A program made the translations under genes and the position numbers. Positions 11,397-33,528 of a stretch of DNA of 64,000 nucleotides are shown here, piece after piece. The stretch is taken from contig JAWCNV010000010.1 in the NCBI GenBank assembly GCA_038848185.1, positions 1,361 through 65,360 on the forward strand, in the 5' to 3' direction. Every line of letters begins with the position of its first letter. Position 1 is the first letter of the stretch. The notes below the pieces were generated by a model. The model ran no database searches. It worked only from the letters and a program-made list of their open reading frames with translations, and was not told where the DNA came from. This DNA comes from Thermoproteota archaeon (GTDB lineage Archaea; Thermoproteota; EX4484-205; JAAOZP01).

Positions 11397-14300
11397 ATGC
11401 GCCACATATCGTTTACCGGTCTCAGGACCCCCCTGATACTTTCACTATTGGTCTTGATGCTTTTAACGCAGCTGACTTTCGTAACAGGATCCGTATCTTC
11501 GAGCAAAAGTAGTCCAGTCCAAATAAGCGATATTGGTAGTTTGAGCTTTGAAAACATCTTGGGGCATGTTGAAACCCTATCAGGATTCGGTTCCCGTGTT
11601 GTCGGTTACGATGGTTTCTTTGAGGCTGCTGACTATATTAAAGCATACTGGTCCTCTTTAGGCTTTGAGGTACGTGAAGAGAAATTTGACATGGTGACGC
11701 CTATCGTTGAAGACTGCTCTATAAAAGTAGAGACGGGTGATGGAACCATATTAGAGTTTGAGGCTTATCCACTTTGGCCTAATCACGTAAATCCTTGTCC
11801 CTACACAAGTCCTGAAGAGGGAGACAGGCTCATATACGTTGAAGGAGGGATTCCGGAAGATTTTGACGGCTCAAACCCGAAGGAAGCATTCGTCCTAATG
11901 GAATTTAATAATCGTTGGTATTGGAAGAACGCTGCTCTATTCGGTGCAAAAGGCATAATATTTCTTGAACCGGAAGAAACTACCGGTATCCAAGCTATTC
12001 AAAAAGTGTTCAGTATTCCAATAAACTTCCCTCGCCTATATGTAAGAGGCCAAACCGCCTCATATCTGAAGAATCTTGTAAAGCAAAGAGGAGAAGTCAA
12101 GATATGGGTAAACTCCAAGATGAAATGGGAACAGAAGAAAGTATCCAACATAATCGCAGTCATAGAGGGTTCTAACCCTGATACGAGAGACAAAGTGGCT
12201 GTCATAGGTGCTTACTATGATTCCTGGTCGATTGTGCCACAGCTTTCACCAGGTGCCACAGACTCCATAGGGATATCTTTCCTGTTAGAGCTTGGCAGGC
12301 TTTTAAAGGATACTCCTCCGGAAAGAACTGTCTGGCTAGTAGCTTTCGCAGGGCATTATCAAGGTTTGGCAGGTGGCAGGGAATTCATGGAGAAACATTT
12401 TGACGAGTTAGCTAGTAAACTTGAGATGATGTTAAGCGTTGACTTGGCGAGTGAGAGCGATATTTTAGCTGTTTACGCAACCGGTTCAATGTATGGGTAC
12501 TTGCAGCCACAGACGCTTTTAGCCAGATACAGTAGGTGGTTAGGTGATATCTTTTCAAAGTGGAAACCTGCTATTGAGAGTGCTATGGGTGAGGAGTATC
12601 ATGTGATAAACGGGGTCACTTGGTCAGACCCGAATTGGATAAGAAGTTCTCGCCCCTTCGAGCCTTTTCCAATATACTTCGAAGCCGAGATTTTCACCGA
12701 AGCCTGTTACGGTGGTGGTTTAGGTTTCGTTACAACGAACACCTTCAAAATATACCAGTATACGCCGTTAGACACAGTCGACAAGTTGATTCAAGATAAT
12801 ATTAGGAAACAAGTAAGCTTCCTGTGGCCAATACTGTACAATTGCGTTAACATGGAGGTAACTTACTTCCTTGCTCCAAAAAGGATAGCAACTGACTGGG
12901 GGTTAATCACTCTAACGATTCAGCTGGCTACGTATGATAAGATTACCGACTGGTTTAGAAGCTACTATCATGAGGATGCGATTTTTCTGGTTTCTGTTAG
13001 TGGGATTTCGTCTTCTCAGCAGCAAGTGGTTTACGCAGGTTTCTCAGCCCCCTCTTCAATAGGCTCTTTAAGAAGTGCTGTGGTACAGGGTGTGACAGTT
13101 GGACTGTTTGCCTCCTCTTCTGGTGTAAGCCAAGGGCAGGTTCAGCAGGGTTCGCTTGCAACCCCTCTTGGGTTCACCATGGTTGCTAAGCCTGATGCTC
13201 AAGGGCAGGTAGTTATTAAAGGAATAAGGCCTTTAACAGGTATTGACGTGCAAGCATACGTTATTGATCCGGAAACTGGAAAAATATTATGTGCAACAGA
13301 CACCGGGCCATTTGGAACCACCAAACTTAGGTATGGTGGTCTTTTCGGACAAGCCGCTGCAGCCGCAGCACCAACCCTTACCGCAGGTATGGAGGCACTA
13401 GTTTATCTCGCAGCATCAGGTGAGGGCGCTCGCTCTTTTAACCTCTTTGCCCCGCCATGGTGGCGATACGTTCCAATCATTAACGTTTCGTCGATCGCGA
13501 TATTAGGGCTTATTGATCCAGTTAACATTAAGGATGCGGCAGGACTGACACTAGAGGTCTACAACTTCATTTCTCACAGCTACCTTATTTGGAGAGATAC
13601 TCTTTCACCATGGCCAGAAACCATGGCTTTCATTCAACCAGATGTTCCTGTCGAAATCTTGATAAAAAGCGGAGGACGAATAGTGGCTATTTTAAACAAT
13701 GCCTCCAGCAAGTATCCTGAGGGTCAAGGCTACCTGCTTAAGCATGGTGAGACAAAAATCTTAACGATGTTTGATGCTGTAGATAGTGTGTTTTATCTTG
13801 CTCAGGCTAGAGCCGGCTTTTTGATGGAAAGAATGTCAGCAAATCCGAAGCTTGTACTCCATCTTGAGAAGATGAACAGTTTCAGAAAAGCCTCGGAAGA
13901 AGATCTGCAGAATGGGAAACTAGGTGAGTTCTACTCCCTATCTATTGCCTGCTGGCAATATGCGTTGCATGCTTACCTTTCTTCCTTCGAGCTAACATAT
14001 GACGTTGTTAATACAGCGTCTTTCTTCTTCTTCCTATCGGCCGCCTTCATAATTCTGGTTGCTAGGTTAATCGCAAGAAGAGAAGCCGGGGTAAAGCGTA
14101 TGATGTATATAATCGCTTTATTCTTAGTGGTAAATGTGCTTTTAGGATTAATTCATCCTGGTTACGCTATTTCATCAAATATCTGGATGCTTATAAATGG
14201 GTTGGCCATAATCCTGTTCTCAATCCTCTTGGTTTACGTTGTGATAGATGAGTTTAATGATGCTGTGAAAAGCATAAGCCAATCAATCCTTGGCTATCAT

Positions 14301-16055
14301 AAATCTGACATTGAGAGAAACAGCTTCATATTCTCCGCTTTCTCCATCGGTGTGGAAAACCTCAAAAAGAGGTATATTAGAACTGCTTTAACATTATCGA
14401 CCATCATAATAACCGTCCTTGCAATGACCATGTTCACAACTATGGGTTTAGTCGTTACGTCATATAAGACAGAGTTAGGCACGATGCCTGCTTACACAGG
14501 TTTCCTCATAAAGAAACCATTGCCTGACATCATTAATGTTCCCCTATCCGAGCTTTATATGATGGGAATAAATGATATTGCGTCACAAGGGCTCGGAGAA
14601 TTCCAAGCTTGCCCAAGAACTTGGATATATCCTCCGGGCATGAAGATGTTTGTAACATGGGCTAATGCGACGAAGTCAAGCATTAGGGCAATATTAGGAA
14701 TCACTCCAGAGGAGGCTAAATTATTAGAGCCTGCGCTTTCCTCTGGCACTACTTTCATGGAAGGTGCGGAGCGAGTAGCTTTGGTTAGTAGCGGTCTCGC
14801 CAGCCAGCTGAGTGAAGACCTTGGTATAGAGGTTAAGGTTGGTACTTCGATTAGTATTTACGGTATGCCTGTCACAGTCGTAGGGATCCTAGACGATGAG
14901 TTAAGCAAATCTGTTTTCAAAGACTTGGATGGTGGCGATTTTGTGCCCCTCAACCCAACCTCCTCACTTACGAGCGGAGCGCCGGTTTACCTCGATGTTA
15001 AAGAGGTACTAATTGTTCCCTATGATTTTGCAAGAAATGTCTTCAACGCTCAGCCTAACATCATCGTTTTACACTCCGGCACATCTATTAAAACTGAGGA
15101 TTTGGGTCAGCGTGCTTATGACTTGGCTTTGATACTACCCTTTGACATCTTCTTCGGCTCAATGCAGCATGAGTCCTCAGGCAAGGTTGCAACCAGAGAT
15201 GTATACTTAATCAGTGGAACTGAAAACATGCTGGTGCCTTTAACAATCTCTGCCTTAACGATTTTATCAATGATGCTGAGTGCAGTTTACGAAAGAACAA
15301 AGGAGATTACGACGCTTAGTACTCTAGGGCTTTCGCCACGCCACATCGGGTCAATCTTCCTAATAGAGTCAATAGCACTGGCTTTTATCGGCAGCTTCAT
15401 CGGCTATATAACGGGGGCAGGAGTAATGACTCTCTTATGGAGGCTGAACATGTTTCCCAAAGAATTGATTCCGAATGTGTCTTCAGGAGTAATAATTATA
15501 GTCATGGGTGTGATAATATTAGTTACGGTACTATCATCTGTTTACCCAATAGTTAGAGCCTCAAAACTAGCAACCCCGTCGTTACTGAGAAAGTGGCAGA
15601 TCGGAAGCAAACCGGTTGAAGACAGGTGGAGCGTAGCTTTACCCTTCAACGCTACTACCTCAGAGACGCTAGGGGTCTTAGAGTTTCTAGCTGAGTATTT
15701 TGAGGCTTCGTCTTCCACAAGCGGGAGGGCAGGACTCTTCATCCTCCTTAAGCCTGCAGAAATAATACAGGAGGATAATAGAAAAATCTTGAAAGTGCAG
15801 TTACAACTATCACCATTTGACGCTGGAATAATTCAAAATCTTGAAGTAGTTTGCCAGAGGATTGGTACCGATAGATATGGCTTCGGAATCCTGATAAATA
15901 GACTATTGGGCACGGAAAACCTTTGGGTTACGGCCAACAAGAACCTTCTCAGCGAACTTCGTAAACAGTTCCTATTCTGGAGGGCTCTTGGCGTAAGTGA
16001 TAAGGCAAAGTATATAGAGCGAGGGGAACGGAGGCAGAGCACTAGTAAGGAGTGA
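11397..16055 (+). CDS. Giant membrane protein: signal peptide, PA domain, degenerate M28-peptidase-like ectodomain, 3 TM, MacB/FtsX-type permease unit, conserved non-ATPase cytoplasmic C-terminal domain (cassette A, 'L' subunit)
   Basis: 1552 aa. Signal MRHISFTGLRTPLILSLLVLMLL. PA-like GDRLIYVEGG...AALFGAKGIIFLEPEE. M28-like VAVIGAYYDSWS...PGATDSIGISFLLELGR with metal ligands substituted (H to Y; DD to TD; EE to GH). MacB-type TM1 LKKRYIRTALTLSTIIITVLAMTMFT (around 14360-14460). FtsX core AVYERTKEITTLSTLGLSPRHIGSIFLIESIALAFIGSFIGY (around 15280-15400). About 170-aa C-terminal tail, no Walker A. Confidence 0.7.
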   Translation: MRHISFTGLRTPLILSLLVLMLLTQLTFVTGSVSSSKSSPVQISDIGSLSFENILGHVETLSGFGSRVVGYDGFFEAADYIKAYWSSLGFEVREEKFDMVTPIVEDCSIKVETGDGTILEFEAYPLWPNHVNPCPYTSPEEGDRLIYVEGGIPEDFDGSNPKEAFVLMEFNNRWYWKNAALFGAKGIIFLEPEETTGIQAIQKVFSIPINFPRLYVRGQTASYLKNLVKQRGEVKIWVNSKMKWEQKKVSNIIAVIEGSNPDTRDKVAVIGAYYDSWSIVPQLSPGATDSIGISFLLELGRLLKDTPPERTVWLVAFAGHYQGLAGGREFMEKHFDELASKLEMMLSVDLASESDILAVYATGSMYGYLQPQTLLARYSRWLGDIFSKWKPAIESAMGEEYHVINGVTWSDPNWIRSSRPFEPFPIYFEAEIFTEACYGGGLGFVTTNTFKIYQYTPLDTVDKLIQDNIRKQVSFLWPILYNCVNMEVTYFLAPKRIATDWGLITLTIQLATYDKITDWFRSYYHEDAIFLVSVSGISSSQQQVVYAGFSAPSSIGSLRSAVVQGVTVGLFASSSGVSQGQVQQGSLATPLGFTMVAKPDAQGQVVIKGIRPLTGIDVQAYVIDPETGKILCATDTGPFGTTKLRYGGLFGQAAAAAAPTLTAGMEALVYLAASGEGARSFNLFAPPWWRYVPIINVSSIAILGLIDPVNIKDAAGLTLEVYNFISHSYLIWRDTLSPWPETMAFIQPDVPVEILIKSGGRIVAILNNASSKYPEGQGYLLKHGETKILTMFDAVDSVFYLAQARAGFLMERMSANPKLVLHLEKMNSFRKASEEDLQNGKLGEFYSLSIACWQYALHAYLSSFELTYDVVNTASFFFFLSAAFIILVARLIARREAGVKRMMYIIALFLVVNVLLGLIHPGYAISSNIWMLINGLAIILFSILLVYVVIDEFNDAVKSISQSILGYHKSDIERNSFIFSAFSIGVENLKKRYIRTALTLSTIIITVLAMTMFTTMGLVVTSYKTELGTMPAYTGFLIKKPLPDIINVPLSELYMMGINDIASQGLGEFQACPRTWIYPPGMKMFVTWANATKSSIRAILGITPEEAKLLEPALSSGTTFMEGAERVALVSSGLASQLSEDLGIEVKVGTSISIYGMPVTVVGILDDELSKSVFKDLDGGDFVPLNPTSSLTSGAPVYLDVKEVLIVPYDFARNVFNAQPNIIVLHSGTSIKTEDLGQRAYDLALILPFDIFFGSMQHESSGKVATRDVYLISGTENMLVPLTISALTILSMMLSAVYERTKEITTLSTLGLSPRHIGSIFLIESIALAFIGSFIGYITGAGVMTLLWRLNMFPKELIPNVSSGVIIIVMGVIILVTVLSSVYPIVRASKLATPSLLRKWQIGSKPVEDRWSVALPFNATTSETLGVLEFLAEYFEASSSTSGRAGLFILLKPAEIIQEDNRKILKVQLQLSPFDAGIIQNLEVVCQRIGTDRYGFGILINRLLGTENLWVTANKNLLSELRKQFLFWRALGVSDKAKYIERGERRQSTSKE

Positions 16056-16061: not shown

Positions 16062-17942
16062 ATGGAAGAAGTCAAGCAGAAGGGGCTTACATGGAGGGCT
16101 GTTCTAGCAATCATATTCGTAGTGTTCGTCATAGAGCCAGCGATAGTTTACAACTGGCTGGTCAGTGGTCTTTGGGGGCTACCTCTTCAAAGCTGGGCAG
16201 TCATATTGCTATGGATTGGCTTGGCAAGGCTTCTAGGCTCCTCATTAAGCTCCAAGGAGATTTTTGTCATAAGAATGGTGGAGACAACAGGTCTAATGTT
16301 CACCGGCTACTACTTTGCATACTTACTGCGTAACCAGTATTTCGCAAATTCTGAAATAGCAGCACTGTTTGGCATGCAGGATCAAATACCCCCGTTCTTC
16401 TCGCCTCTTGGAGAGTTCGCCCAGAGATCCATGCTACAAAGGACATTTTTCGACTTTGCTTGGGCTCTGCCCATACTGGTCTCCGTTGTTATACCTGTAG
16501 TGCTCGTCGCAGTCGCCAATTATGTGCTTGGTCTGCTTGCCTTCAGACTCTACGTGCAGGAGGAGAAGCTGGAGTTTCCACTAGCCTCATGGGACGCTAG
16601 GACGATGAAAGCCTTCGGTGAAAGAGACAAAAGCCTGATCAAATATATTGCTCTCTCCATAATGGGTGGATTCCTTTACTCTGTAATGAGCCAAGGGCTC
16701 ACTACCATACTGGGGGTACCCCTGTTTCCACGCTATACCATAGATCTAACCAACATAGTTGAGACTATGCTTCCGGGGGCCTCGTTCTCCTTCAGCCTAG
16801 ATTTGTTATCTTATATAACTGGCTTCATCCTACCGATTCAATTTACAGCTGCGCAATTCATATCTTCAGTTGCACTATCTATTTTCGGAAACTATTACGT
16901 GACAGTTAACGATTTATGGCCTGCTGAGAGCAAATGGCAGGCTGGCCAAGGTTATCTCTGGATCTACCAGAGGTCTTCACTCTACTTCTGGAATAGCTTC
17001 ACAATAGGGTGGGGCATAGCAATGGCTGTAATTCCACTCTTGATAAGGTATAAGTCAGTCGTCAGAGCATTTACAAGAGTTGGTAGTGGTCTCGGAAAAA
17101 CGGAGAAAGGCAGTAGACTGCTTTCCAGCAAATTCCTTATTCTTATATACTTGGCTACTGCAGGAGCATCCATACTCATCACGAAGATTCTCATACCTGA
17201 CTTTCCTCTATGGGTCCTCGTGCTCTTCACGCTAGGAATCTCGTTTGTGATGACTCTGCTACAAACACACTCTGCAGGGATCACCGCCGGGTTTAGCGTC
17301 CCCTATCTTAGGGAAACCATGATATACTTTAGCGGTTACGATAGGATTGACATATGGTTCGCACCACCTGACATGATGCTTTTCCTCGGAGGATCAGGTA
17401 TAGCTCAACAGCTTAAGCAAGCATCTATGCTGGGCGTGGAAATAGAGGAGTATACTAAAGCGTATTTCCTAATGGTCTTCCTTGGGCTCTTGGGAAGCTT
17501 TATATTCGTTTCTCTCTTCTGGAGCCTCAGCCCTATACCCGGGTGGGCATACCCCTACACGATTTCAGCATGGCCTGTGGAAGCATTGAACTTCTGGAGG
17601 TGGCAAACCTGGCTCTGGTCTGGTTATCTCTTTAGAAGAGAAATGATGTTAACAGGTATTGGTGTCTCTACTGTGCTCTACCTGATATCGGACCTTGTTT
17701 TCCACATGCCTTCTTTCCCGATTGCAATGATGTCCGGAATGCTGATGGTTCCAAACATAGCTCTATCACAATTCCTGGGTTCCGTAATATCTGTAGGCAT
17801 AAGCAGGTTTTTAGGTAAGAAACTATGGGATGAAAACAAAGGGTTCTTTGTGATAGGTTTATCACTCGGAGACGGTCTCTTTTCCACAATTTTAAGGGTC
17901 CTAACATTGATAGGCAGGTCAGTATGGCTTAAGCCCTACTAA
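16062..17942 (+). CDS. Polytopic Trp-rich membrane protein, subfamily P1 (cassette A)
   Basis: 626 aa, 12 or more hydrophobic segments; homolog of 41143-43107 (GLTWRAVLAIIFVVFVIEPAIVYNWLVSG vs GLTWKTVLAIIFSSFIIQPAVIYLYLVSG); contains EKLEFPLAS motif; starts 7 nt after the upstream stop. Confidence 0.65.
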   Translation: MEEVKQKGLTWRAVLAIIFVVFVIEPAIVYNWLVSGLWGLPLQSWAVILLWIGLARLLGSSLSSKEIFVIRMVETTGLMFTGYYFAYLLRNQYFANSEIAALFGMQDQIPPFFSPLGEFAQRSMLQRTFFDFAWALPILVSVVIPVVLVAVANYVLGLLAFRLYVQEEKLEFPLASWDARTMKAFGERDKSLIKYIALSIMGGFLYSVMSQGLTTILGVPLFPRYTIDLTNIVETMLPGASFSFSLDLLSYITGFILPIQFTAAQFISSVALSIFGNYYVTVNDLWPAESKWQAGQGYLWIYQRSSLYFWNSFTIGWGIAMAVIPLLIRYKSVVRAFTRVGSGLGKTEKGSRLLSSKFLILIYLATAGASILITKILIPDFPLWVLVLFTLGISFVMTLLQTHSAGITAGFSVPYLRETMIYFSGYDRIDIWFAPPDMMLFLGGSGIAQQLKQASMLGVEIEEYTKAYFLMVFLGLLGSFIFVSLFWSLSPIPGWAYPYTISAWPVEALNFWRWQTWLWSGYLFRREMMLTGIGVSTVLYLISDLVFHMPSFPIAMMSGMLMVPNIALSQFLGSVISVGISRFLGKKLWDENKGFFVIGLSLGDGLFSTILRVLTLIGRSVWLKPY

Positions 17943-17955
17943 AACAGGCATCTGA

Positions 17956-17990
17956 ATATTTTTTTCCTAGTTTTTGATTATTGTTTTCAT
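17956..17990 (+). terminator. T-tract terminator candidate (ATATTTTTTTCC...TTTTTGATTATTGTTTTC)
   Basis: T7 run beginning 16 nt after the stop of the 626-aa gene; archaeal terminators are oligo-T tracts. Confidence 0.4.
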
Positions 17991-18003
17991 TATATGCTAG
18001 TAA

Positions 18004-18014
18004 AACTTATATAC
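18004..18014 (+). promoter_or_regulatory. TATA-like element (ACTTATATACT) for the 683-aa gene
   Basis: Centred about 34 nt upstream of ATG 18044. Confidence 0.35.
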
Positions 18015-18043
18015 TTCCAAACATCCTATTAGACGATGGTAAA

Positions 18044-20032
18044 ATGGCTGAAGAAGTTAAAAGTGCTTTAACACCCAAAATGTGGATATTCCTAATAGCG
18101 CTCTCGGTTTTGATGAGCCTTATCGGAGTATCGGCAGCGCCTTTCGCACCCTCATGGGCTTGGTCAACAGTCATGGGTTCTTTCACAGGTCCGATCGTAG
18201 TTCTGTTCATACTACTACTACTCTCTAAGGCTCTTAAGCTGCAGGGTTTAGGTCTTCAGAAGCTTGGTCTAGTATACACGGTATCATCAATATCCCTAAT
18301 CTTCTGCTGGAGCATGATTCCCTATGGTATACTCCACAACTCAGCAAACATGCGCATGGTAACATACGACCCATACACCACAGCACTTGCAGACCAGTTT
18401 GTTTTCGGACCGCGTGCAGAGGTAGCTTCCCAAATCCAGACGGGTGGCGCACTACACCTCGTAGGCGAATGGGCCCCCTGGATGGGATGGTGGTCAGCTT
18501 ACGCCATACTGTGGCTGGTGTTCTGGGTCGGATGGCTAGCATTGCTCCACGAGAGATGGATAGAGGTGGAGAAGCTACCTTTCCCGGCTGCTCTAACTGG
18601 AACACTGCAGATACAGCTGATAGCTGGTCCTGAAAAGGACGGCCGGCTCAAATACTTCCTAGTGGGTGTTGCGATAGGCGCATTAGTCATATTGCCGATA
18701 GTAGTACATGCACTCTACCCCGCCTTCCCCGACATATATGGTTGGACGGCTGACCCATATCTTCCATGGTGGATGGGCACGCTGAACCTTGCCGGAGTGC
18801 CTGCCGCATCAGCAATCCCTGTTATGAGCTTCCTTCCAGTGAACCCGATGGCTTACGCACTTTTCCTACTGTTCCCAACGAAAATACTCTTCTCAATATG
18901 GATATTCAGTCTACTAGGCGTGATCATACCGGCACAGATAGCGTGGTACATGGGCTACTACTCTGGAATACAAACGGCTGGTTGGAGAGCTGACTACCTG
19001 CTGTACCAAGAGCCGTTCAAGTATGGTGGCATATGGGTAGGCGCATTCGTAGGACTAGCCTTAATCTGGTTCGTTCTTAACGTACCCTACATGAAGAGCC
19101 TGTTCTCAAAATCTGTCGACGTCAGTAAAAAGGCTATTGCCCCCATGATGGGATGGATTATGATAATAGTGTCCACCATAGGGCTAATCGCTCTACTAAT
19201 CGTAGCAGGTGCTAATCCACTCGGCTCAATACTGATAGTTGTATCCATGTGGCTACTCTACATGGGTACGATGAGAGTATACGGCTTCGGCAGCATCGCT
19301 GGCTCAGCTTGGACCTCGCCCATAGACTGGCGTCAATTCCCGTGGATTACGAAGTATGTTTGGCACCCGGGAATGACGGCGGAGATGCTTAGCGCTAACC
19401 CGGCACTGGCCAAAGAATACTGTACGACCATGATGCTTACCAACAGGTTCACCGGAGAAATGATGGGTGAGATCAACACTCAATTCGGAATGTTATTCGC
19501 CATGCCGCTGTGCTACAAGGTTGGATACGATACTGGGACACATCCAAGAGACATAACTATGCTGATGCTGGTTTCAGGCATAATCTCAGCTGTGATAGGT
19601 TTCACACTATCTGTCGTGTTCGACTACGCTGCAGGGACAGCTAACACTCCCATGGGCATGTACGACGCTTGGTGGATATGGGTCTTTGCAGTACCAGGAA
19701 CCGTTGAGACCATACCTACAAGCGAACCTTTCTGGCCGTACCTATTAGCCGGTATCATCCTTTCTGCAGTACTGAGCTTCCTCAACTTCCGCTTCGCATG
19801 GTGGCCACTGGATCCTGCGGGTGTATGCGTTGCCCTTGGAGCAGGACCCGGAGGATGGATGCTTCCTGCGTTAGTCGGGTGGATCATTAAGACTGTGGCT
19901 GTGAGAATGGGTGGCTCTAAGCTTCACGACAACGTCATCATACCTATCGCCGTAGGGGTACTGGTTGGCTACTGGTTCCTCTGGTTCCTAGGGTCAATCA
20001 TAGGGCTCATAAAGTTCTTCATCCCTGCATAA
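18044..20032 (+). CDS. Polytopic Trp-rich membrane protein, subfamily P2 (cassette A)
   Basis: Start moved to MAEEVKSALTPKMW (ATG 18044) by homology to MAEEAAEVPS start of paralog 36020-37993. The ORF-track TTG at 17981 lies within the terminator/promoter region. Contains EKLPFPAAL motif; C-terminal GGSKLHDNVIIPIAVGVLVGYWFLWFLGSIIGLIKFFIP conserved with paralog. Confidence 0.65.
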   Translation: MAEEVKSALTPKMWIFLIALSVLMSLIGVSAAPFAPSWAWSTVMGSFTGPIVVLFILLLLSKALKLQGLGLQKLGLVYTVSSISLIFCWSMIPYGILHNSANMRMVTYDPYTTALADQFVFGPRAEVASQIQTGGALHLVGEWAPWMGWWSAYAILWLVFWVGWLALLHERWIEVEKLPFPAALTGTLQIQLIAGPEKDGRLKYFLVGVAIGALVILPIVVHALYPAFPDIYGWTADPYLPWWMGTLNLAGVPAASAIPVMSFLPVNPMAYALFLLFPTKILFSIWIFSLLGVIIPAQIAWYMGYYSGIQTAGWRADYLLYQEPFKYGGIWVGAFVGLALIWFVLNVPYMKSLFSKSVDVSKKAIAPMMGWIMIIVSTIGLIALLIVAGANPLGSILIVVSMWLLYMGTMRVYGFGSIAGSAWTSPIDWRQFPWITKYVWHPGMTAEMLSANPALAKEYCTTMMLTNRFTGEMMGEINTQFGMLFAMPLCYKVGYDTGTHPRDITMLMLVSGIISAVIGFTLSVVFDYAAGTANTPMGMYDAWWIWVFAVPGTVETIPTSEPFWPYLLAGIILSAVLSFLNFRFAWWPLDPAGVCVALGAGPGGWMLPALVGWIIKTVAVRMGGSKLHDNVIIPIAVGVLVGYWFLWFLGSIIGLIKFFIPA

Positions 20033-20177: not shown

Positions 20178-21635
20178 ATGAAAAACTCGTTTAACCACGT
20201 GAAAGGCTTTCTCCTTGCAATCATACTCATAATGTCTCTGAACATTCTGCTTCTAACGCCTCAGACCGAATACGTTTACTATGGTGTTATTCCAGAAAGA
20301 ATCTATGATTATGACCCCATCCAAGAAACAGACTTATCAAAAGGCTGGAGACTAGTACAGGCGACCGTAGCCACGCAAGGCTACATCTCTATCCTTGCTT
20401 CGCAGGACGGTACTCAGGTGAGAGTCTACACTCTTCCAGGAAAGGAGCTTGTCTCAGAATTCTCACTTAACTCTATGGAGAAGCGTTACGTTCCTCTTCC
20501 GAACGGAACCATGTTCAAGGTTGTTTCGAACAAGCTGGTTTCAGTCCTGCTAATATCTCCACCACCCAGAGGAATCCCGGGAGTTAACGCTACGGAGGGA
20601 CCTATTACAACAGGCTTCTACCTTTCTGTTGAGGGAGCATACGTTGGCAAGGAGTTCGTGATAGAGACTTCACAGGGGCTCTTAGGGCTTCTCCACACCA
20701 TATTTGCCGTGGAGGATGCTGAGGTAACGTTGACCGCTGAAGACGGAACTACACAAACCTTCAAGCTTAAGGCAAACACGTACAGAGAGTTGCAGCCTAA
20801 GCCTCTGAAAGCCTACAGGATAACCTCAACCGGAAACATAATGATTCAAGGCGGTTATATGGATGTTACAGGAACCAATATGCCGAGAAGCTTCTTCATA
20901 CCTTCAGCCGAAGGCGGCTTCGTAGGCAGAAGATTCTACTCCGGTGCCAGTGACACATCCGATGAAGGAATTTTACAGGAGGAAAACTGGTTCGTCATAT
21001 CTGCCTTGGAGGACGCTAAGGTCACAGTCTGGGACCTCTATAACCAGAAGGCTGCTACAGAGATCACTGTTAAGGCTGGGGAGCAGGCTTACGTTAAATG
21101 GGTCGAGATTAAAGTGTTTGAGGAAATAGCATTTGACAGTGATAAGCCGATAACTGTTCAGTTCCTCCACAGCGGCAGCATTAAAAGAGGCTATGGTATA
21201 GCCACTGGTGCAGGCTTCACCTACATGTGTATTAGGCCTAACGAGGATACTCCGTTCGTCCTACCGACAAACTCCACCATCTACGCATACCTCTTCACCA
21301 GTGAGGACGCTAACATCGTGGTCGACGACGTACCAATGACCCTCAGGCCAGACGAGCCCTGGATACTATCCACCCCGGGGCCTCACACAGTCAGGTCGAA
21401 CAAGAACCTGGTTCTCCTCCTGCTGCACTACCCGCTAATACCTCCAAACCAAGGCATAAACGGCTTCGGTGTTCCGGTACCGTGCGTTCAAACAGTTAGC
21501 GTAACTCCAAGCGTCACCCTGCGCCCACTGGGAGGAGAGGGGGCAGCAATCCCGACAAACTACATAATCATAATAGTGGTGGTAGTGGTCATAGTCGTGG
21601 TCGTCGCCGTCTTAATGAGAAGAAGAAAGAAGTAA
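20178..21635 (+). CDS. Secreted beta-rich protein with C-terminal TM anchor (…IIIIVVVVVIVVVVAVLMRRRKK), cassette A-specific
   Basis: 485 aa; N-terminal signal/TM MKNSFNHVKGFLLAIILIMSLNILLL; C-terminal poly-I/V helix plus RRRKK; no recognisable catalytic motifs. Confidence 0.6.
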   Translation: MKNSFNHVKGFLLAIILIMSLNILLLTPQTEYVYYGVIPERIYDYDPIQETDLSKGWRLVQATVATQGYISILASQDGTQVRVYTLPGKELVSEFSLNSMEKRYVPLPNGTMFKVVSNKLVSVLLISPPPRGIPGVNATEGPITTGFYLSVEGAYVGKEFVIETSQGLLGLLHTIFAVEDAEVTLTAEDGTTQTFKLKANTYRELQPKPLKAYRITSTGNIMIQGGYMDVTGTNMPRSFFIPSAEGGFVGRRFYSGASDTSDEGILQEENWFVISALEDAKVTVWDLYNQKAATEITVKAGEQAYVKWVEIKVFEEIAFDSDKPITVQFLHSGSIKRGYGIATGAGFTYMCIRPNEDTPFVLPTNSTIYAYLFTSEDANIVVDDVPMTLRPDEPWILSTPGPHTVRSNKNLVLLLLHYPLIPPNQGINGFGVPVPCVQTVSVTPSVTLRPLGGEGAAIPTNYIIIIVVVVVIVVVVAVLMRRRKK

Positions 21636-21715: not shown

Positions 21716-24700
21716 ATGGGGCTTTCCTTCATGCCGGTAAAAGCGAGGATACTTATGCTGGTTTATCTGCTTATTATTCTTTTTGCACTTTTCTCCATGA
21801 AAGTGAACGCTACTCCCGATAGCCTGATAGAAGTCTACGGCAGAGTTCTTAATGCTATGGATGGAAGCCCGGTTGAAGGAGCCACTGTTCTCATCCGGGA
21901 TGTTTCAGACCCGTCGATAAACCCTGTTCCGGGAGCAGGAATTTATATCACGGATGAGAAGGGGTCTTACGTGGCAGCTTCCCCTTATATTCGGATTGGT
22001 CACTACTATAGGATTTATGCTTTCAGAGGGGAGCTTCCACAGGGGCCTTTTGACTATGTTCCATCTAAACCCTTAACGTTAAAAATTGAAGAGGGTAAGA
22101 GTTTAAACATTTCTTTCAGGCTGGTTCCCGCTGCCTGCCTTATACTTGAAGGGGACATAATGTATGTTGAGGCCACTGGAACTGCCTTCAGGACCTCGGT
22201 AAGTATTGTTGACCCGTATACGGGAAGCCCGCCAGAAGTGTATGGTGCAGATTATGTTTCAACCTATTGGGCTTCTTCAGACTCTTGGTTCCTAGGCTTA
22301 GCTGAGAGGGTTGTTGTAATACCTGCCAATAAGAAGGTTTACTTAAGGGCAGACTCTTGGTTTCGAGTTGGAACCTACCTAAAGGCTTTCTCCTTCCTCA
22401 TTGATAATAATGGAGAAGGTTTCTCACTGCCTCAAGGTGGCATGCAAAATGTCAGTATCTGGGAGTACCCTTTAAGGAGAAGTTTAGAAATGGTGAGGGA
22501 TGTGCATTCAGAGGTTCTGCAGAAAACCGAGGATTTCTCTAGGTCTGGTTTCATAGTGTTTGATGAGCGGCAACGGCTTGAAGCTGCACGCCAAAAGTAT
22601 TTAGAGTCTCAAGGCCTAATTTATAGTAATCCTAGGGAAAGCTGGTATTCCATGAGAGAGGCTTATACGGAGATTTTGGCGGTTGATAATACTTTGAACT
22701 TCATGAAGTTCGCAGTAGCCACGGAAGCAGTAAGGCTTCCTATTTTTCTATCGGTTATGGCGGTTACGCTGGGCTTCTTTTCTTTTGAAGAAATTAGGAG
22801 AAAATTCTTATCCACATTAATATTTTATCTACTGCTCATATTTTTAATATTCCTGATATATCCTGGTGTTAGTACTTTCAGTAATGAGGATGTTAGAAAC
22901 TTCGTGATCTCGTCACTCATATCAATCTCAATTACTCTGGTTATTGTTTTCTTAATACCGAGGGTTTGGAGAGAACCCAGGGTTGAGGGGGAGGTTTCTC
23001 TTAGAAGTGTATTGAGCATCATTTTTTCAATGTCGAAGAGACAGGTGAGGAAAAGAAGGCTTAGAAGTATTTTCACTTTCCTGAGTCTCTGTATAATGGT
23101 TATGACATTTACTGCACTAACTTCCTTTGGAACAGTTTATGGGCTTAAGTATGAGACCACACCATTTACTAGTTCTAAAAGCGGGTTCCTAGTAAGGATG
23201 AGCAATATGGGTAATCTAACTTTCACCCCTATATCACCATCCGATCTTTCAGTTTTGAATGAAACGAATGAGTTATCTTATATTTCACCTAAGGTGGAAA
23301 GCTTAGGAGACGATCAGGCACTTGGAGAGTTGCTGTCGAGCTCGGGGCACCTCTTAAAGTTTTACGGGATCCTTGGAATAGACTTTAGCAATGAATGGAG
23401 ATATGTTGATGTAACGAATGCAATAACCGGAGACCTGCCTGCAGGGGGTAGTTCTGAAGAGATTGTAGTAAGCTCGCCAATGGCTGATGCATTAGGCATA
23501 AGTATTGGCGATTATGTAAATATATATGTGCGTGGAATAAATGAGCCGATAGAAACCGCTAAAGTTGTCGGTATCTTCAGCGAGTCAACTATAGGGTCAC
23601 TCACAGATCTCGGAGGTGGTAACTACCTGCCCCTGAGGTTTCTTAAGGTTGATGATAGGGTGACGGCTCGGCCATGTAATGCGAGCGACATATTTCTTAT
23701 GGATTGGAGAGGACTGCTCAGCTTGCAGTCTAAAGTGGAGTCTTTGCAACCTAGCGGTACACTTCAACTAGCAGCTATTTCAAGGGTGGCTTTCTCACTT
23801 AGGGAAGATGTGGATGTCGATCTTTCAAAACTAGTTAGACGGTTGACTTTTGTCTTCGGTTATGTTGTGAATATTGTGGGGCAAAACCAGGTTGAAACAT
23901 ACTCTCTAGGGTATTTCTACGAGACTAAGGGTATTGGCGAGATGATAATACCGATCATAATGGTCATGCTTAATACCGGTTCCATAATGCTCAATGTAGT
24001 GTATGAAAGACATAGGGAGATGAAGACTCTGACACTCTTAGGACTGAATCCTGTCCATATCGGATTGATTTTTGTGGCTGAAGCAATCATAATTGGTCTA
24101 ATAGGCGGGGGAATTGGATACGTTGTTGGATTAGGCTTCCAAAGGGTTATAGTTCTTTTTGGACAAGACCTTATGGTGAAGTCTAAAATAGAATGGTGGT
24201 GGAGCTTCATAGGTCTAGCGCTTTCTCTGTTGGTGTCTGTGCTTTCTTCTTGGAGAGCGGCGGCAGTAGCCGTCAAGATATATACCCCCTCAATGGTCAG
24301 GAAAGTTAAGACAGGCAAAGAGGAGAAGAAAATTAGGGAAGAAGAAATATTCAGGATTTTCCAGGGTAGAGAAGTTTCTATGCCTATAAGACTGCATCCT
24401 GTCGAGGTCGACTTCTTCACTGGATATGTGATTACGCGTCTTTCAGAGATGAAGTTTGGGTTTGCTGATCGGGTGGAGGACTTGGAAGAGATGAAGCCCC
24501 AACAGTTTAAGGATGGAAGCGTCCATAAGGGAGTCCACTTTAAGTACTTAAACATGATAAAGGGTCAGCTTCTCGGAACCAAAAACAGGGTCCTCTGCAT
24601 ACAGGATCCTGGGAAAGACTTTTTCAGAGTTTCTCTCGTGTATGAGCCAACTGTGCCAGGGATTCCTGAAGCGGTGGTTAAAAGAGTGGTGGAAATAATC

Positions 24701-24760
24701 AAAGACATATGCTACTCGTGGGTTAAAGAAAAAGACAGGATAGTCGTAGGCTTCAAATAG
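21716..24760 (+). CDS. Large membrane protein: signal/TM, carboxypeptidase-regulatory-like ectodomain, 3 TM, MacB/FtsX-type permease unit, conserved non-ATPase cytoplasmic C-terminal domain (cassette A, 'M' subunit)
   Basis: 1014 aa. Ectodomain VYGRVLNAMDGSPVEGATVLIRD (CarbopepD_reg/prealbumin-like). MacB-type TM1 KRQVRKRRLRSIFTFLSLCIMVMTFTALTSFG (around 23040-23130). FtsX core VVYERHREMKTLTLLGLNPVHIGLIFVAEAIIIGLIGGGIGYVVGLGF (around 23995-24140). About 160-aa cytoplasmic tail homologous to the tail of 38108-41134, no Walker A. Confidence 0.7.
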   Translation: MGLSFMPVKARILMLVYLLIILFALFSMKVNATPDSLIEVYGRVLNAMDGSPVEGATVLIRDVSDPSINPVPGAGIYITDEKGSYVAASPYIRIGHYYRIYAFRGELPQGPFDYVPSKPLTLKIEEGKSLNISFRLVPAACLILEGDIMYVEATGTAFRTSVSIVDPYTGSPPEVYGADYVSTYWASSDSWFLGLAERVVVIPANKKVYLRADSWFRVGTYLKAFSFLIDNNGEGFSLPQGGMQNVSIWEYPLRRSLEMVRDVHSEVLQKTEDFSRSGFIVFDERQRLEAARQKYLESQGLIYSNPRESWYSMREAYTEILAVDNTLNFMKFAVATEAVRLPIFLSVMAVTLGFFSFEEIRRKFLSTLIFYLLLIFLIFLIYPGVSTFSNEDVRNFVISSLISISITLVIVFLIPRVWREPRVEGEVSLRSVLSIIFSMSKRQVRKRRLRSIFTFLSLCIMVMTFTALTSFGTVYGLKYETTPFTSSKSGFLVRMSNMGNLTFTPISPSDLSVLNETNELSYISPKVESLGDDQALGELLSSSGHLLKFYGILGIDFSNEWRYVDVTNAITGDLPAGGSSEEIVVSSPMADALGISIGDYVNIYVRGINEPIETAKVVGIFSESTIGSLTDLGGGNYLPLRFLKVDDRVTARPCNASDIFLMDWRGLLSLQSKVESLQPSGTLQLAAISRVAFSLREDVDVDLSKLVRRLTFVFGYVVNIVGQNQVETYSLGYFYETKGIGEMIIPIIMVMLNTGSIMLNVVYERHREMKTLTLLGLNPVHIGLIFVAEAIIIGLIGGGIGYVVGLGFQRVIVLFGQDLMVKSKIEWWWSFIGLALSLLVSVLSSWRAAAVAVKIYTPSMVRKVKTGKEEKKIREEEIFRIFQGREVSMPIRLHPVEVDFFTGYVITRLSEMKFGFADRVEDLEEMKPQQFKDGSVHKGVHFKYLNMIKGQLLGTKNRVLCIQDPGKDFFRVSLVYEPTVPGIPEAVVKRVVEIIKDICYSWVKEKDRIVVGFK

Positions 24761-24786: not shown

Positions 24787-26031
24787 CTACTCTTTTTTCT
24801 TTCTAATCTCTTGAAGCAAAGTTAGGATTTCAATCATGGCTCTGCCATTGTGGTATGCCGCCTTCCAGATTCCAGCCTTGTTTCCAAAAGCCTTTCCGTT
24901 AGGCTTAACCACGCTATACCAATCTCCATTCTTCCAATCAACCTGATATTTCTCTATCCAGTCCAGCGTCTTTGCAAAGTATTTTAGGTAGGAAGGTTCT
25001 CCCGTTAGATGATACATGTAGGCTTCGCATACAAGTGCCTCAGCCTGAATCCACCAGACCTTATCCAACCTGTCTGCAGGCTTATTAATCGGTCCGCTTT
25101 CATAGACTCCTCCCTTCTTATTATCAAAACCGTATTTGGCAGAATAGGCGAAAACCGTTTTATAAAAGTCGGCGAGTACACTTTGGGGAATTTTTAACAG
25201 GTCACAGGCTTTTGCGACGAGCCAAATATTCTCCAAATTATGTCCATATGAGACTCGATCATGCCGGACTCCGTGAAGTGGCGTCCAATCTAAGTGGTGT
25301 GTTTCAGTGCATAAACCATTATTTTTCCGGAGGACCGAATTGCTAAGTATCAAGATTAATTCATGCAGCCGCTCTCTGGCCAACATGTCTCCAGTAGCTT
25401 TGTAAAGGGTTGTTAAAGCCTCAAGTAGGTGAAGATGAGTATTCATCGATTTAAATTCCGGAGGAAAGTAAAAACGCTTTCTTTCTATGGAAGTTGCAGT
25501 TGACCAGTCCTTAGGGAAGTACTCTTTGTACCCACCGTGTAAAGAATCATGTGAATGTTTCTCCATAAGATTAAAGAGGTTTAAAGCCATTTCTAATGCT
25601 TCCTGATCCTTACTGGCCATTGCAAACTCTGAGAGAGCATAGAGCCCGAAGGCTTGACCATACATGACCTTGTCGGGTTTAAGAACTTGGCCTTGATGAT
25701 CAACTTCCCAGAAAAAGCCCCCGTTCTCCAAGTCCCACATGTGGTCACGCAGGAACCGGTAGCCGTGCTTGGCGGCTTCTAGTTCTTCTTTACCGCCCCA
25801 ACCTGTGTTAAAGAGTTGGGAGAAATACCAGACCATGCGTGCCTGTGTCACAATCATTTTGGTTCCCTTACCTATCAGCTTACCATTTATATCGTGGTTC
25901 AGATAATAGCCCCCGTTTTCACTATCTATAGTTCTAGGATACCAGAACGGCTTAATGTTTTCATTCAGAATCTTTTCAAGCCTGTTTTCAACAGAGTCAT
26001 AAAACTTTTCAACATCCTTTATTTCCGACAT
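24787..26031 (-). CDS. N-acylglucosamine 2-epimerase (AGE) superfamily protein, possibly cellobiose/mannobiose 2-epimerase
   Basis: 414 aa, no signal peptide; (alpha/alpha)6-barrel AGE-family hallmarks by eye (Trp/His-rich repeats, overall size); sits in a beta-glycan hydrolase cluster. Confidence 0.5.
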   Translation of the reverse strand: MSEIKDVEKFYDSVENRLEKILNENIKPFWYPRTIDSENGGYYLNHDINGKLIGKGTKMIVTQARMVWYFSQLFNTGWGGKEELEAAKHGYRFLRDHMWDLENGGFFWEVDHQGQVLKPDKVMYGQAFGLYALSEFAMASKDQEALEMALNLFNLMEKHSHDSLHGGYKEYFPKDWSTATSIERKRFYFPPEFKSMNTHLHLLEALTTLYKATGDMLARERLHELILILSNSVLRKNNGLCTETHHLDWTPLHGVRHDRVSYGHNLENIWLVAKACDLLKIPQSVLADFYKTVFAYSAKYGFDNKKGGVYESGPINKPADRLDKVWWIQAEALVCEAYMYHLTGEPSYLKYFAKTLDWIEKYQVDWKNGDWYSVVKPNGKAFGNKAGIWKAAYHNGRAMIEILTLLQEIRKKKE

Positions 26032-26212
26032 TTCCCTTCGAGGAGCCTTCTTATTGGTTTTTAAAAAATCTTTTGGCGTGTCAATACGTTACTCCAGAAA
26101 TTATTTCTTCGCTGCGGAAATTAATGGGAATAGTGGGAATTCTTGAAACACGTTAACAAGGCAATAACACATATACAGATTTCAACTACACTTCTTTAAA
26201 CAGGATTTGGCA

Positions 26213-27295: not shown

Positions 27296-27299
27296 TTCT

Positions 27300-29354: not shown

Positions 29355-29607
29355 TTGTCTTTCAACCCCTTAGCAAGCTTCTAATTTTTATGAGTCTGTT
29401 AATAAAGAAGATTACTGACAAAACAATCACAGCTAAAAATTGCATGGTAAATAACCAACAAAACTTTTCTAAACAACTTTCATGCATAACTGGCATCTGA
29501 CGTACCTATCGATATCGATGGAAGCTTGTTAGTCATTGAAATATTTGTTGAAGATTCGCCGAACCTAATAAGTTTTTTAAACGAAGTTTTTAAAGGCTGA
29601 AAAACTG

Positions 29608-29617
29608 TTAAATATTA
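29608..29617 (+). promoter_or_regulatory. TATA box (TTAAATATTA) for the GH3 gene; divergent promoter region shared with the GH42-like operon
   Basis: Centred about 33 nt upstream of ATG 29646; a second TATA-like element (rc CATAAAAATTA at about 29384-29394) sits 30-40 nt upstream of the minus-strand start at 29354. Confidence 0.4.
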
Positions 29618-29645
29618 CTGATTCATAATTGAACTGTGTTTAAGC

Positions 29646-31955: not shown

Positions 31956-32105
31956 ATTAGAAGAAATGCTTAAAGGACGCATCAAGTAGCTTTTTATACT
32001 GTCTTTTTATGAGGAAACGTAAAGTAATGTTTTAAAGGTTTTTTCAGGAAGCAATATTTAAATCTCCTGAAGAGGTTGTATCTTTATATGGGGCATGAAA
32101 GCGGA

Positions 32106-33263: not shown

Positions 33264-33283
33264 ATCCTTCTTCCTTAAACTAT

Positions 33284-33294
33284 TGTTTTTCTTC
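33284..33294 (+). terminator. T-tract terminator candidate (TTGTTTTTCTT)
   Basis: 20 nt downstream of stop 33263 in a convergent intergenic region. Confidence 0.35.
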
Positions 33295-33509
33295 AATAAT
33301 ATTCTATCCTTAATGCACATTATAGCAACACATCTAGAGAAGCGAGATGCCTGGTGTATACCTGTATCAAGAAGCTGAGACAAACTGTGTGAATTAAATC
33401 CATTGAGCGAGGCTCATAAGGTATTAATGAATATTAAAGATTTAACATTATGAAAAGAGTTCATGGTTTACGAATCACATGCCTATAATTAAGCCTTACG
33501 AATAGTAGA

Positions 33510-33522: not shown

Positions 33523-33528
33523 GGAAGT

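Follow-up and report, generated by a model that had tools for sequence, protein, structure and literature searches.

Genes at the locus

The window, meaning the whole 64,000-nucleotide stretch of Thermoproteota archaeon DNA that was analysed, encodes four large membrane proteins, one P1 and one P2 protein in each of two cassettes, A and B.

16062-17942, + strand: P1A, an open reading frame of 626 aa present at these coordinates; putative divergent OPT/YSL-superfamily transporter
18044-20032, + strand: P2A, 662 aa from its ATG; Pfam DUF6785 and DUF6784, putatively a divergent OPT-superfamily branch
36020-37993, - strand: P2B, 657 aa; DUF6785 and DUF6784, orthologue-like partner of P2A
41143-43107, - strand: P1B, 654 aa; paralogue of P1A

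The 683-aa form of P2A that begins at a TTG (17981) is probably overextended at its N terminus. A better start appears to be the ATG at 18044, which the public record uses and which aligns with Met1 of P2B. An earlier, sequence-only reading of this DNA had described the proteins as polytopic and Trp-rich, and this is the case: all four are polytopic and contain 3.5-5.4 % Trp. The corresponding values are 0.8-1.8 % for the neighbours L_A, M_A and GH3, and 3.4 % for an epimerase-family neighbour.

The same reading had recognized four distant homologues in two orthologous pairs, and both BLASTP and profile comparison confirm this. P1A and P1B share 37 % identity over their full length (E 3e-120, BLASTP), and P2A and P2B 28 % (E 1e-56). 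BLASTP detects no significant similarity between P1 and P2, with only the stretch around a shared motif aligning (E 0.73). At the level of profiles, however, the two are homologous from end to end: alignment A1 matches A2 at 98.8 % (E 1.2e-16, 552 columns), and a deeper DUF6785 alignment, A5, matches a Thermoproteota-only P1 alignment, A4, at 99.6 % (hhalign; E 1.8e-24, 597 columns).

Placement in the OPT/Yellow-Stripe superfamily

The proteins had not been placed in any known family by eye, but profile and fold now assign both P1 and P2 to the OPT/Yellow-Stripe superfamily. We consider it very probable that all four are highly divergent OPT/Yellow-Stripe-like proteins (PF03169, TC 2.A.67) that adopt the OPT fold and are of the carrier type. 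On sequence comparison, P1A and P1B belong to a clade that lacks a Pfam model and is related to bacterial proteins named "peptide transporter" or "OPT/YSL family transporter"; P1A itself has no match in Pfam or NCBIfam. P2A and P2B are members of DUF6785 (PF20581) plus DUF6784 (PF20580), for which Pfam states no function and which represents, as judged from profiles, a divergent OPT branch. P2A scores 39.8 bits against DUF6784 and 28.5 bits against DUF6785, both above the curated cut-offs, and P2B scores 90.7 bits against DUF6785. All 60 sampled P2 relatives match DUF6785, 58 of them also match DUF6784, and the DUF6785 family comprises 3846 representatives (50 % clustering, E <= 0.001). No mention of DUF6785 or DUF6784 was found in the literature searched; here they are tied to the OPT/YSL superfamily by both profile and fold.

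Two observations count against this placement. PF03169 gives no direct match to any of the four proteins, even at E <= 10, and neither NPG nor KIPPR, the signature motifs of eukaryotic OPT proteins, was found in them. The evidence for the assignment comes from intermediate sequences, comparison of profiles with one another, and predicted structure. The P1 relatives P0055 and P0053 match PF03169 at 70 and 38.9 bits, respectively (cut-off 25.8; profile positions 105-623), as do five of the 60 sampled DUF6785 members (best E 1e-13). Relatives of both P1 and P2 therefore lie above the cut-off for the family whose prokaryotic clusters were surveyed by Gomolplitinant & Saier (2011, PMC3061005), whereas the four window proteins lie below detection. 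Their length and helix count nevertheless fit those of prokaryotic members (~16 TMS, 620-690 aa; PMC3061005). Comparison with a bacterial OPT-like alignment, A3, gave a match to A4 at 100 % (hhalign; E 1.9e-64) over 602 columns that extend to a common C-terminal ...LPY, and to A5 at 98.9 % (E 1.3e-17, 541 columns).

Template-free AF2 models were obtained for P1A (pLDDT 87.9) and P2B (pLDDT 75.1, pTM 0.81). In Foldseek searches with each, the sole significant PDB matches were the structures 7wst/7wsr of barley YS1 (HvYS1), a member of the YSL branch, with E ~4e-10 and TM 0.64-0.69 for P1A and E 2.6e-8 and TM 0.60-0.65 for P2B. The remaining PDB matches of both models had E >= 0.04 and TM <= 0.16, and these sub-significant entries, among the best 50 listed, include pyrophosphatases and MFS and APC-type carriers. 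HvYS1 is alike in overall fold (TM 0.60-0.69) and comparable in size (~600-680 aa), and shares the many long helices and a conserved extreme C terminus, which in YS1 provides a strand of the dimer interface (PMC9691689). Sequence identity to HvYS1 is ~14 %, and no sequence-level match to its PDB chain was detected.

The sequence-only reading had proposed comparison with several other folds. That the proteins are GT-C glycosyltransferases or oligosaccharyltransferases (STT3/AglB, YfhO, MptA-like), or RND/MMPL or ABC-2 proteins, is suggested by their large, polytopic, Trp-rich look in a glycan-related locus and by nothing more, and we give it next to no credence: YS1 alone was found at E <= 0.001 in both PDB searches, none of these folds is among the best 50 PDB matches listed, and there was no Pfam match to these families at E <= 10. 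Their placement by family and fold would therefore make the four transporters of the carrier type, as opposed to channels or GT-C enzymes. The terms "channel" and "flippase-like," used in the earlier reading, also sit poorly with the solved member of the fold, which is a proton-coupled elevator-type importer (PMC9691689).

A conserved motif

Each protein carries one copy of an E-x-L-P-F/Y-P motif.

16563-16580, + strand: EKLEFP of P1A (aa 168-173)
18569-18586, + strand: EKLPFP of P2A
37445-37462, - strand: EALPYP of P2B
42553-42570, - strand: QKLEFP of P1B, with Q where the other three have E

The strings occur exactly as originally quoted and constitute a true family signature. Scanning of all six frames (stop-free stretches of 100 aa or more) revealed three occurrences of E.L[PE][FY]P in 25,270 residues, all within these proteins. 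Residues F172 and P173 of P1A are invariant and L170 is nearly so in alignment A1; E178 and P181 of P2B are invariant and P183 is nearly so in A2. The bacterial consensus, DVERLPFPMAP, contains the same motif. On these alignments it is the best-conserved segment common to all these branches of the superfamily. In the P1A model it falls between a long helix (132-167) and a short one (173-187), and we infer from the models that this junction of a long transmembrane helix with a short helix would connect the transport core to the scaffold domain.

Linkage to giant FtsX-type proteins

Both cassettes also encode very large FtsX-domain proteins, L and M.

11397-16055, + strand: L_A, 1552 aa; signal peptide, large extracellular part, MacB-like periplasmic and FtsX domains (Pfam, TM scan); stop codon 6 nt upstream of the P1A start
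20178-21635, + strand: X485, 485 aa; predicted to be surface-anchored, with a signal peptide, C-terminal TM helix, and RRRKK tail
21716-24760, + strand: M_A, 1014 aa; second FtsX-domain giant of cassette A (Pfam FtsX, 49.1 bits)
38108-41134, - strand: M_B, 1008 aa; second FtsX-domain giant of cassette B, between P1B and P2B (Pfam)
43124-47749, - strand: L_B, 1541 aa; paralogue of L_A with M28 and FtsX domains (Pfam); stop codon 16 nt upstream of the P1B start

The genetic tie to FtsX-fold proteins, noticed from the window, extends well beyond it. In all 25 archaeal loci for which upstream DNA is available, L lies directly upstream of P1, with a junction of -31 to +25 nt, and 22 of 29 archaeal loci also contain P2. 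Outside the Thermoproteota, a giant FtsX protein adjoins the P1-like gene in six of seven loci and DUF6785 does so in L006, L007/L008, and L044, and the trio of giant FtsX, P1, and DUF6785 recurs in bacteria. Counterparts of M_A are found in some related loci only, and the gene order L-P1-M-P2 is kept in two (L024 and L033). The N terminus of M_A has a weak CarboxypepD_reg-like match (17.1 bits, under the 32.3-bit cut-off). Homologues of X485, which has no Pfam match, occur in many related loci, with four copies in L013.

This linkage of OPT-type genes with giant FtsX genes is the new element. Although the four are members of an established permease superfamily, the neighbouring genes are not unrelated to them. 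Equally, DUF6785 is found alone beside corrinoid methyltransferase genes (URO-D, B12-binding), and no FtsX gene adjoins one of the P1-like genes, so neither family strictly needs L. Together with the ability of YS1 to function without accessory proteins (PMC9691689), this would speak for P1 and P2 being ordinary stand-alone secondary transporters whose proximity to L and M reflects co-regulation and not partnership. We regard this as unlikely in view of the uniformly tight L-P1 junctions of the archaeal loci and the persistence of the trio in distant bacteria amid otherwise unrelated neighbours, as is typically seen for proteins that form a single complex.

The domain content of L (MacB_PCD and FtsX) and M (FtsX) resembles that of the type VII ABC systems MacB, LolCDE, and FtsEX, from which L differs by ~850 extra extracellular residues that include an M28-like domain. 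Compared with solved M28 peptidases, Tyr replaces the first His ligand of this domain, His-Tyr replaces Glu-Glu, and one His of the C-terminal HH motif is also substituted. From these residues, the domain is degenerate in both L_A and L_B, and without catalytic residues. To our knowledge, no type VII ABC system paired with OPT-fold carriers has been described.

Direction of transport and cargo

YS1, the solved member, is a homodimeric, H+-coupled, elevator-type importer (PMC9691689). By analogy, import by P1 and P2 would be coupled to ions. HvYS1 carries Fe(III)-phytosiderophore as a homodimer, whereas here two very divergent paralogues accompany the FtsX giants in each cassette, and the working unit may be a P1/P2 heterodimer. 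This would cooperate physically with L and M, whose large extracellular parts, including the catalytically dead M28-like domain, could offer a platform on which substrate is captured outside the cell. The conserved arrangement suggests that the FtsX giants and P1/P2 make up an undescribed composite uptake system, and we put forward import coupled to L and M as a plausible model, though one to which we assign a little less than an even chance. FtsX/MacB-type proteins normally require an ABC ATPase, and the lack of a gene for one from both the window and the archaeal loci counts against it; in bacteria, a MacB/LolD-like ATPase and a small FtsX protein are also part of the module.

The FtsX/MacB-type proteins MacB, LolCDE, and FtsEX act at the outer face of the membrane, and none of them is an importer. 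This, the tight coupling of L with P1, and the ATPase of the bacterial modules could instead point to exporters or flippase-like carriers that pass a glycan, lipid-linked sugar, or envelope component to MacB-like L/M. Such a role seems quite improbable: the archaeal loci have no ATPase to drive a MacB-type extruder, the enzymes encoded nearby are catabolic and cytoplasmic, no glycosyltransferase or polymerase genes were seen in the window, YS1, the sole solved member, imports (PMC9691689), and the family literature consulted describes uptake alone (PMC3061005).

For the import model, the cargo in this Thermoproteota archaeon would most likely be β-mannan- or β-glucan-derived oligosaccharides, bound for the cytoplasmic-type glycosidases encoded between the two cassettes; we propose this tentatively, at well short of even confidence. 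Within the window are genes for a GlcNAc-2-epimerase-family protein, GH5, GH42-like, and GH3 enzymes without signal peptides, as well as surface-anchored Mann_GBD proteins, GH4, and GH97. It contains no classical sugar transporter, and the only other transporter-like gene is an ABC-2 permease (109-933). Sugar-metabolism families are plentiful among the neighbours of the archaeal loci and include AP_endonuc_2 (six), Gfo/Idh/MocA (six), GH130 (three), TrmB (three), and UxuA (two).

The cargoes of characterized OPT members are tetra- and pentapeptides, glutathione, or metal-nicotianamine (PMC3061005), which are peptides or metal chelates and not sugars. In keeping with the name OPT, P1 and P2 might be importers of oligopeptides, or of peptide-like metabolites, with L delivering peptides at the cell surface. 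The name "peptide transporter" has been given to bacterial relatives, L carries a domain of the M28 peptidase family, and bacterial copies of the module lie among genes with a link to peptides (M19 dipeptidase, S58 and S9 peptidases, PqqD-like), which counts against a sugar cargo. We view a peptide cargo as possible but somewhat unlikely, as the His and Glu-Glu catalytic/metal-binding positions are gone from the M28 domains of both L_A and L_B and the transporter names are putative annotations. Moreover, glycoside hydrolase and sugar-metabolism genes dominate both the window and the archaeal loci, and no peptidase family is one of the 25 that occur most often beside the latter.

As of the 2011 survey, no prokaryotic OPT homologue had been biochemically characterized (PMC3061005), and any extrapolation to substrate and direction therefore starts from the members in plants and fungi. 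A text search of that survey (PMC3061005) found no mention of an association with FtsX. For one prokaryotic OPT subcluster, genome context had already led to a prediction of oligosaccharide uptake (PMC3061005).

The four membrane proteins and their signature motif

Each of the two paralogous gene sets in the window, cassettes A and B, encodes a pair of related membrane proteins, denoted P1 and P2.

16062-17942, + strand: P1A, 626 aa
17981/18044-20032, + strand: P2A, 662 aa from the ATG at 18044, or 683 aa from a TTG
36020-37993, - strand: P2B, 657 aa
41143-43107, - strand: P1B, 654 aa

The sequence-only reading had described these as four Trp-rich membrane ORFs sharing the motif E-x-L-(P/E)-(F/Y)-P, and this description holds. 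The ORFs are present, their Trp content is 3.5-5.4%, and in a six-frame translation of the window (stop-free stretches of at least 100 aa) the pattern E.L[PE][FY]P is confined to these proteins. Identity is 37% between P1A and P1B (E 3e-120) and 28% between P2A and P2B (E 1e-56). In the public record, P2A begins with the ATG at 18044, whose Met aligns with Met1 of P2B; the 683-aa version initiated at TTG is therefore probably too long.

P1 and P2 had also been called distantly related. By BLASTP there is no significant match between them and the motif stretch alone is aligned, but profile-profile comparison reveals homology over the full length of the proteins, well past the motif. The first P1 and P2 alignments matched over 552 columns (98.8%, E 1.2e-16), the former including members of a bacterial OPT-like clade. 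With P1 sequences restricted to Thermoproteota and Bathyarchaeia, and P2 represented by 60 diverse DUF6785 proteins taken from an exhaustive HMMER search (3846 representatives), the match extended over 597 columns (99.6%, E 1.8e-24).

Placement in the OPT/YSL superfamily

Pfam and NCBIfam scans gave the P2 proteins only the names of domains of unknown function. P2A exceeds the curated cut-offs for DUF6785 (PF20581, 28.5 bits) and DUF6784 (PF20580, 39.8 bits), whereas P2B clearly matches DUF6785 (90.7 bits, cut-off 25) and falls just under the cut-off for DUF6784 (23.6 against 26.4 bits). P1A and P1B matched no Pfam or NCBIfam model, DUF6785 and DUF6784 included. None of the four proteins matched PF03169, the OPT oligopeptide transporter family, even at E <= 10.

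The connection to that family is made through relatives. The list of P1 homologues (n = 55), all encoded on metagenome contigs or in MAGs of Thermoproteota, Bathyarchaeia, or Thermofilaceae, grades into PF03169 carriers: two individual P1 relatives, P0055 and P0053, score 70 and 38.9 bits, respectively, over profile positions 105-623. P0055 belongs to a clade of >4000 bacterial proteins listed at NCBI under the name "peptide transporter" or "OPT/YSL family transporter"; an NCBIfam scan of the relatives bearing the former name found nothing. The Thermoproteota and Bathyarchaeia P1 alignment matches this bacterial OPT-like clade over its whole length (E 1.9e-64, 602 columns), through a common C-terminal ...LPY. 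For P2, a first alignment of 13 sequences matched the clade over 99 columns only, and the set of 60 DUF6785 proteins matched it over 541 (E 1.3e-17); five of these 60 match PF03169 directly, the best with E 1e-13. Sequence-profile searches of PDB chains with the P1, P2, and bacterial OPT-like alignments gave only chance matches to ALK kinase (E ~2). The NPG and KIPPR motifs are absent from all four proteins; these are signatures of eukaryotic OPT proteins, found in "many" members of the family (Koh et al. 2002, as quoted in PMC3061005).

Because the transitive, profile, and fold tests succeeded and the direct tests for PF03169 and for NPG/KIPPR failed, we file the four proteins as divergent, non-canonical members of the OPT/YSL superfamily (PF03169, TC 2.A.67), falling into two subfamilies. 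The sequence-only reading could not assign them by eye to any known transporter or glycosyltransferase family; they can now be assigned to a known superfamily. The bacterial OPT-like clade has the consensus DVERLPFPMAP in the motif region, so the motif is the most conserved signature across this whole prokaryotic part of the superfamily. YSL proteins presumably carry L-T-Y-P-S-G-T-A at the equivalent place.

The predicted fold

Confident template-free AlphaFold2 models were obtained for P1A (pLDDT 87.9, pTM 0.88) and P2B (pLDDT 75.1, pTM 0.81). In Foldseek searches of the PDB, each had exactly two significant matches, both to barley Yellow Stripe 1 (YS1; 7wst and 7wsr), a protein of the YSL branch and the sole solved member of the OPT superfamily that was found. 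For P1A the E values were 3.8e-10 and 9.9e-10 with TM scores of 0.64-0.69, and for P2B 2.6e-8 and 1.4e-7 with TM scores of 0.60-0.65; all other matches had E >= 0.04 and TM <= 0.16. Counting every helix of 13 or more residues, re-entrant and arm helices included, gives 18 for the P1A model and 15 for the P2B model, which approximates the ~16 transmembrane segments in ~600-700 aa typical of OPT proteins (the four have 626-662 aa). According to the authors of the YS1 structure, its fold has no structural homologues (PMC9691689).

The fold comparison originally proposed was with YfhO, STT3/AglB, MptA-like GT-C, ABC-2, and MMPL proteins, and it was YS1 that emerged instead. No glycosyltransferase of the GT-C/oligosaccharyltransferase type (STT3, AglB, YfhO, MptA-like) appears among the 50 best Foldseek matches of either model, nor does any RND or ABC-2 structure, and RND/MMPL, ABC-2, and MOP-flippase folds gave no significant match; Pfam gave no match to any of these families. 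On the Foldseek searches of the PDB, we reject the GT-C/oligosaccharyltransferase, RND/MMPL, ABC-2, and channel readings. Fold and superfamily are both already known, so the novelty does not lie in the type of protein. The placement of DUF6785/DUF6784 and the P1 clade within the OPT/YSL superfamily does appear to be new. It gives a fold and a likely function to two families that had been blank, the unmodelled P1 clade and DUF6785/DUF6784 with its >3,800 cluster representatives, and widens the OPT/Yellow-Stripe superfamily on its prokaryotic side.

YS1 is a homodimer, assembled via its scaffold domains and a C-terminal strand, and operates by a proton-driven elevator mechanism (PMC9691689). By extension, the corresponding unit here would be a P1/P2 heterodimer in which each protomer acts as an ion-coupled elevator carrier. 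The extreme C-termini are invariant within each family (W-L-x-P-Y in P1, F-F-x-P-F/A in P2), a hint of dimer contacts by analogy with YS1, since the C terminus of the latter forms the dimer interface. The P1A model has the motif after a long helix (132-167) and before a short one (173-187), from which we infer that it marks the junction of the transport core with the arm helix leading toward the scaffold.

Linkage to giant FtsX proteins

Each cassette also encodes two giant FtsX-domain proteins, L and M; M (1014 and 1008 aa) additionally shows weak similarity to CarboxypepD_reg.

11397-16055, + strand: L_A, 1552 aa
43124-47749, - strand: L_B, 1541 aa

The N-terminal part of L consists of a signal peptide, ~850 extracellular residues with an M28-family domain, and three TM helices; the C-terminal part is a MacB-like unit (TM, periplasmic core domain, FtsX) followed by a tail of ~150 residues. 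The stop codon of L precedes the start of P1 by 6 nt in cassette A and 16 nt in cassette B. A search by the pattern of the Thermoproteota and Bathyarchaeia P1 alignment, which retrieves archaeal relatives only, yielded 29 loci in GTDB species representatives (Bathyarchaeia, Thermofilaceae, Thermoprotei, Brockarchaeota, and a "Thaumarchaeota" bin); one metagenome locus was examined alongside them. In every archaeal locus with upstream DNA, L is the gene immediately before P1, at a junction of -31 to +25 nt (25/25), as is typical of subunits whose translation is coupled. P2 is found nearby in 22 of the 29 archaeal loci, the exceptions being mostly short contigs, and X485, a surface-anchored 485-aa protein of cassette A, is frequent. 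Among bacterial or unassigned loci, a giant FtsX protein, often M28-matching, adjoins the P1-like gene in six of seven, and DUF6785 does so in L006, L007/L008, and L044. Both the conserved pairing of the P1 clade with DUF6785/DUF6784 and the tight linkage, across both prokaryotic domains, to giant FtsX proteins with a dead M28 domain appear to be new; literature searches on DUF6785, DUF6784, and FtsX with M28 or OPT found nothing relevant.

The M28-like domain is very probably not a peptidase, judging from the loss of its catalytic and metal-binding residues. Aligned to solved M28 aminopeptidases, L_A (the only L protein so compared) has Tyr for the first zinc-ligand His (AYYDSW versus AHLDSW), His-Tyr for the catalytic/ligand Glu-Glu (AGHYQGL versus AAEELGL), and one His gone from the C-terminal HH motif. 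L_B likewise has Tyr for the first His ligand, while its Glu-Glu pair has become His-Phe (GHFQSL). The transferrin receptor and nicastrin contain inactive M28-like domains with a receptor role, and that of L is probably a non-catalytic receptor or scaffold, possibly carrying an inserted PA-like segment.

FtsX/MacB-type proteins normally have an ABC ATPase as partner. In bacterial loci L006 and L007, a MacB/LolD-like ATPase gene and a small FtsX gene lie beside L; a search of the 64-kb window, and of ~10 kb around the module in the archaeal loci, found no ABC ATPase belonging to the module. P1 and P2 could in principle be exporters or flippases that feed a MacB-like extruder, which we consider quite improbable.

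The reading in which the carriers and the giants work together is that a P1/DUF6785 heterodimer is physically coupled to one or two FtsX/MacB giants, from Thermoproteota to Deltaproteobacteria and Planctomycetes, and serves in archaea as an oligosaccharide importer. We put this forward as a possible but doubtful scheme. The FtsX partner of L would be M here, the small FtsX protein in the bacterial loci, or a second copy of L; the LolC/LolE heterodimer is a precedent for such pairing. An oligomeric substrate would be captured or positioned above the carriers by the large ectodomains of L and M and by companions like X485, the extracellular dead-peptidase domain acting as the receptor. L might also transmit conformational work, though the archaeal loci encode no ATPase. 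That P1 and P2 are merely co-regulated with L and M, with no physical complex, seems unlikely given the tight L-P1 junctions; one P1-like gene has no FtsX neighbor and DUF6785 genes also occur alone, so the carriers can exist without L. A gene module conserved in both prokaryotic domains joins OPT-fold carriers with giant FtsX-type proteins, and if it does encode one machine, a secondary carrier would there be combined in a new way with a mechanotransducer or receptor of the MacB-like type.

The solo DUF6785 genes, without L or P1, are at L040:10001-14450 and L041:251-7932 (two copies in the latter), beside genes for a URO-D-type methyltransferase and a B12-binding corrinoid protein, which suggests that other DUF6785 members import substrates of corrinoid-dependent methyl transfer. 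In a Bathyarchaeota MAG, the P2 homologue (L011:3168-5151) is in two pieces ~10 nt apart, covering query residues 1-426 and 425-662; a frameshift, an assembly error, or a pseudogene could explain the break. The end of P2B is overlapped by ~40 nt by the gene for a 223-aa protein with four TM helices and no Pfam match (35389-36060, - strand). This gene also follows P2B in L024 and L033, both cassette-B-type loci, and may encode a further small subunit.

Genomic surroundings and possible cargo

Between the cassettes (24787-35205) lie genes for a GlcNAc-2-epimerase-family protein and GH5, GH42-like, and GH3 proteins, all without signal peptides, and for a surface-anchored Mann_GBD protein; together they look like a beta-mannan/beta-glucan catabolic set. 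The window as a whole encodes surface-anchored Mann_GBD proteins, GH4, GH97, and ThuA, and the one other transporter in its 64 kb is an ABC-2 permease at the left edge. GH130 and TrmB occur in related loci. Among 126 neighboring ORFs counted in the archaeal loci, the commonest families outside housekeeping functions were xylose-isomerase-like TIM barrels, Gfo/Idh/MocA oxidoreductases, GH130 (mannoside phosphorylases), TrmB (sugar regulators), and UxuA, and no peptidase family was among the 25 commonest. A genome-context survey of OPT proteins had already proposed oligosaccharide uptake for one prokaryotic subcluster, and at its date, 2011, no prokaryotic member had been characterized biochemically (PMC3061005).

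The dead M28 domain, the sugar-enzyme neighbors, the lone ABC-2 permease, the census, and the survey proposal lead us to favor, tentatively, oligosaccharide import as the function in this archaeon. The main alternative, peptide import, draws on the OPT name and the M28 domain, but the domain in L is without key catalytic residues and sugar families dominate the archaeal neighborhoods, and we regard it as somewhat doubtful. Substrates probably differ between lineages. Were oligosaccharide import by the composite machine true, it would be the missing sugar-oligomer importer of glycan-degrading loci in uncultured thermophilic archaea, replacing binding-protein-dependent ABC sugar transporters in the glycan-utilization loci of hot-spring Thermoproteota and Bathyarchaeia.

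Three bacterial loci have a conserved pair after the module, a ~300-aa unannotated gene and a PqqD-like gene (L006:14409-15718, L007:14386-15703, L008:6829-8158), and L006 has a radical SAM gene as well. PqqD-like domains are often involved in peptide recognition in RiPP pathways, and in these bacteria the module may have a peptide-related role. Elsewhere in the window, a DUF6786 (PF20583) protein (57785-58813, + strand) is encoded beside the ThuA (59711-60385) and GH97 (60449-62392) genes. Its accession number is the next after those of DUF6784 and DUF6785, and the three may have been defined from one common context. Beside cassette B is a complete NurA-HerA-Mre11-Rad50-like DNA-end-resection operon (47975-54073, + strand; NurA, a DUF87/HerA helicase, a metallophosphoesterase, and an SMC-like ATPase), which is unrelated to the module.
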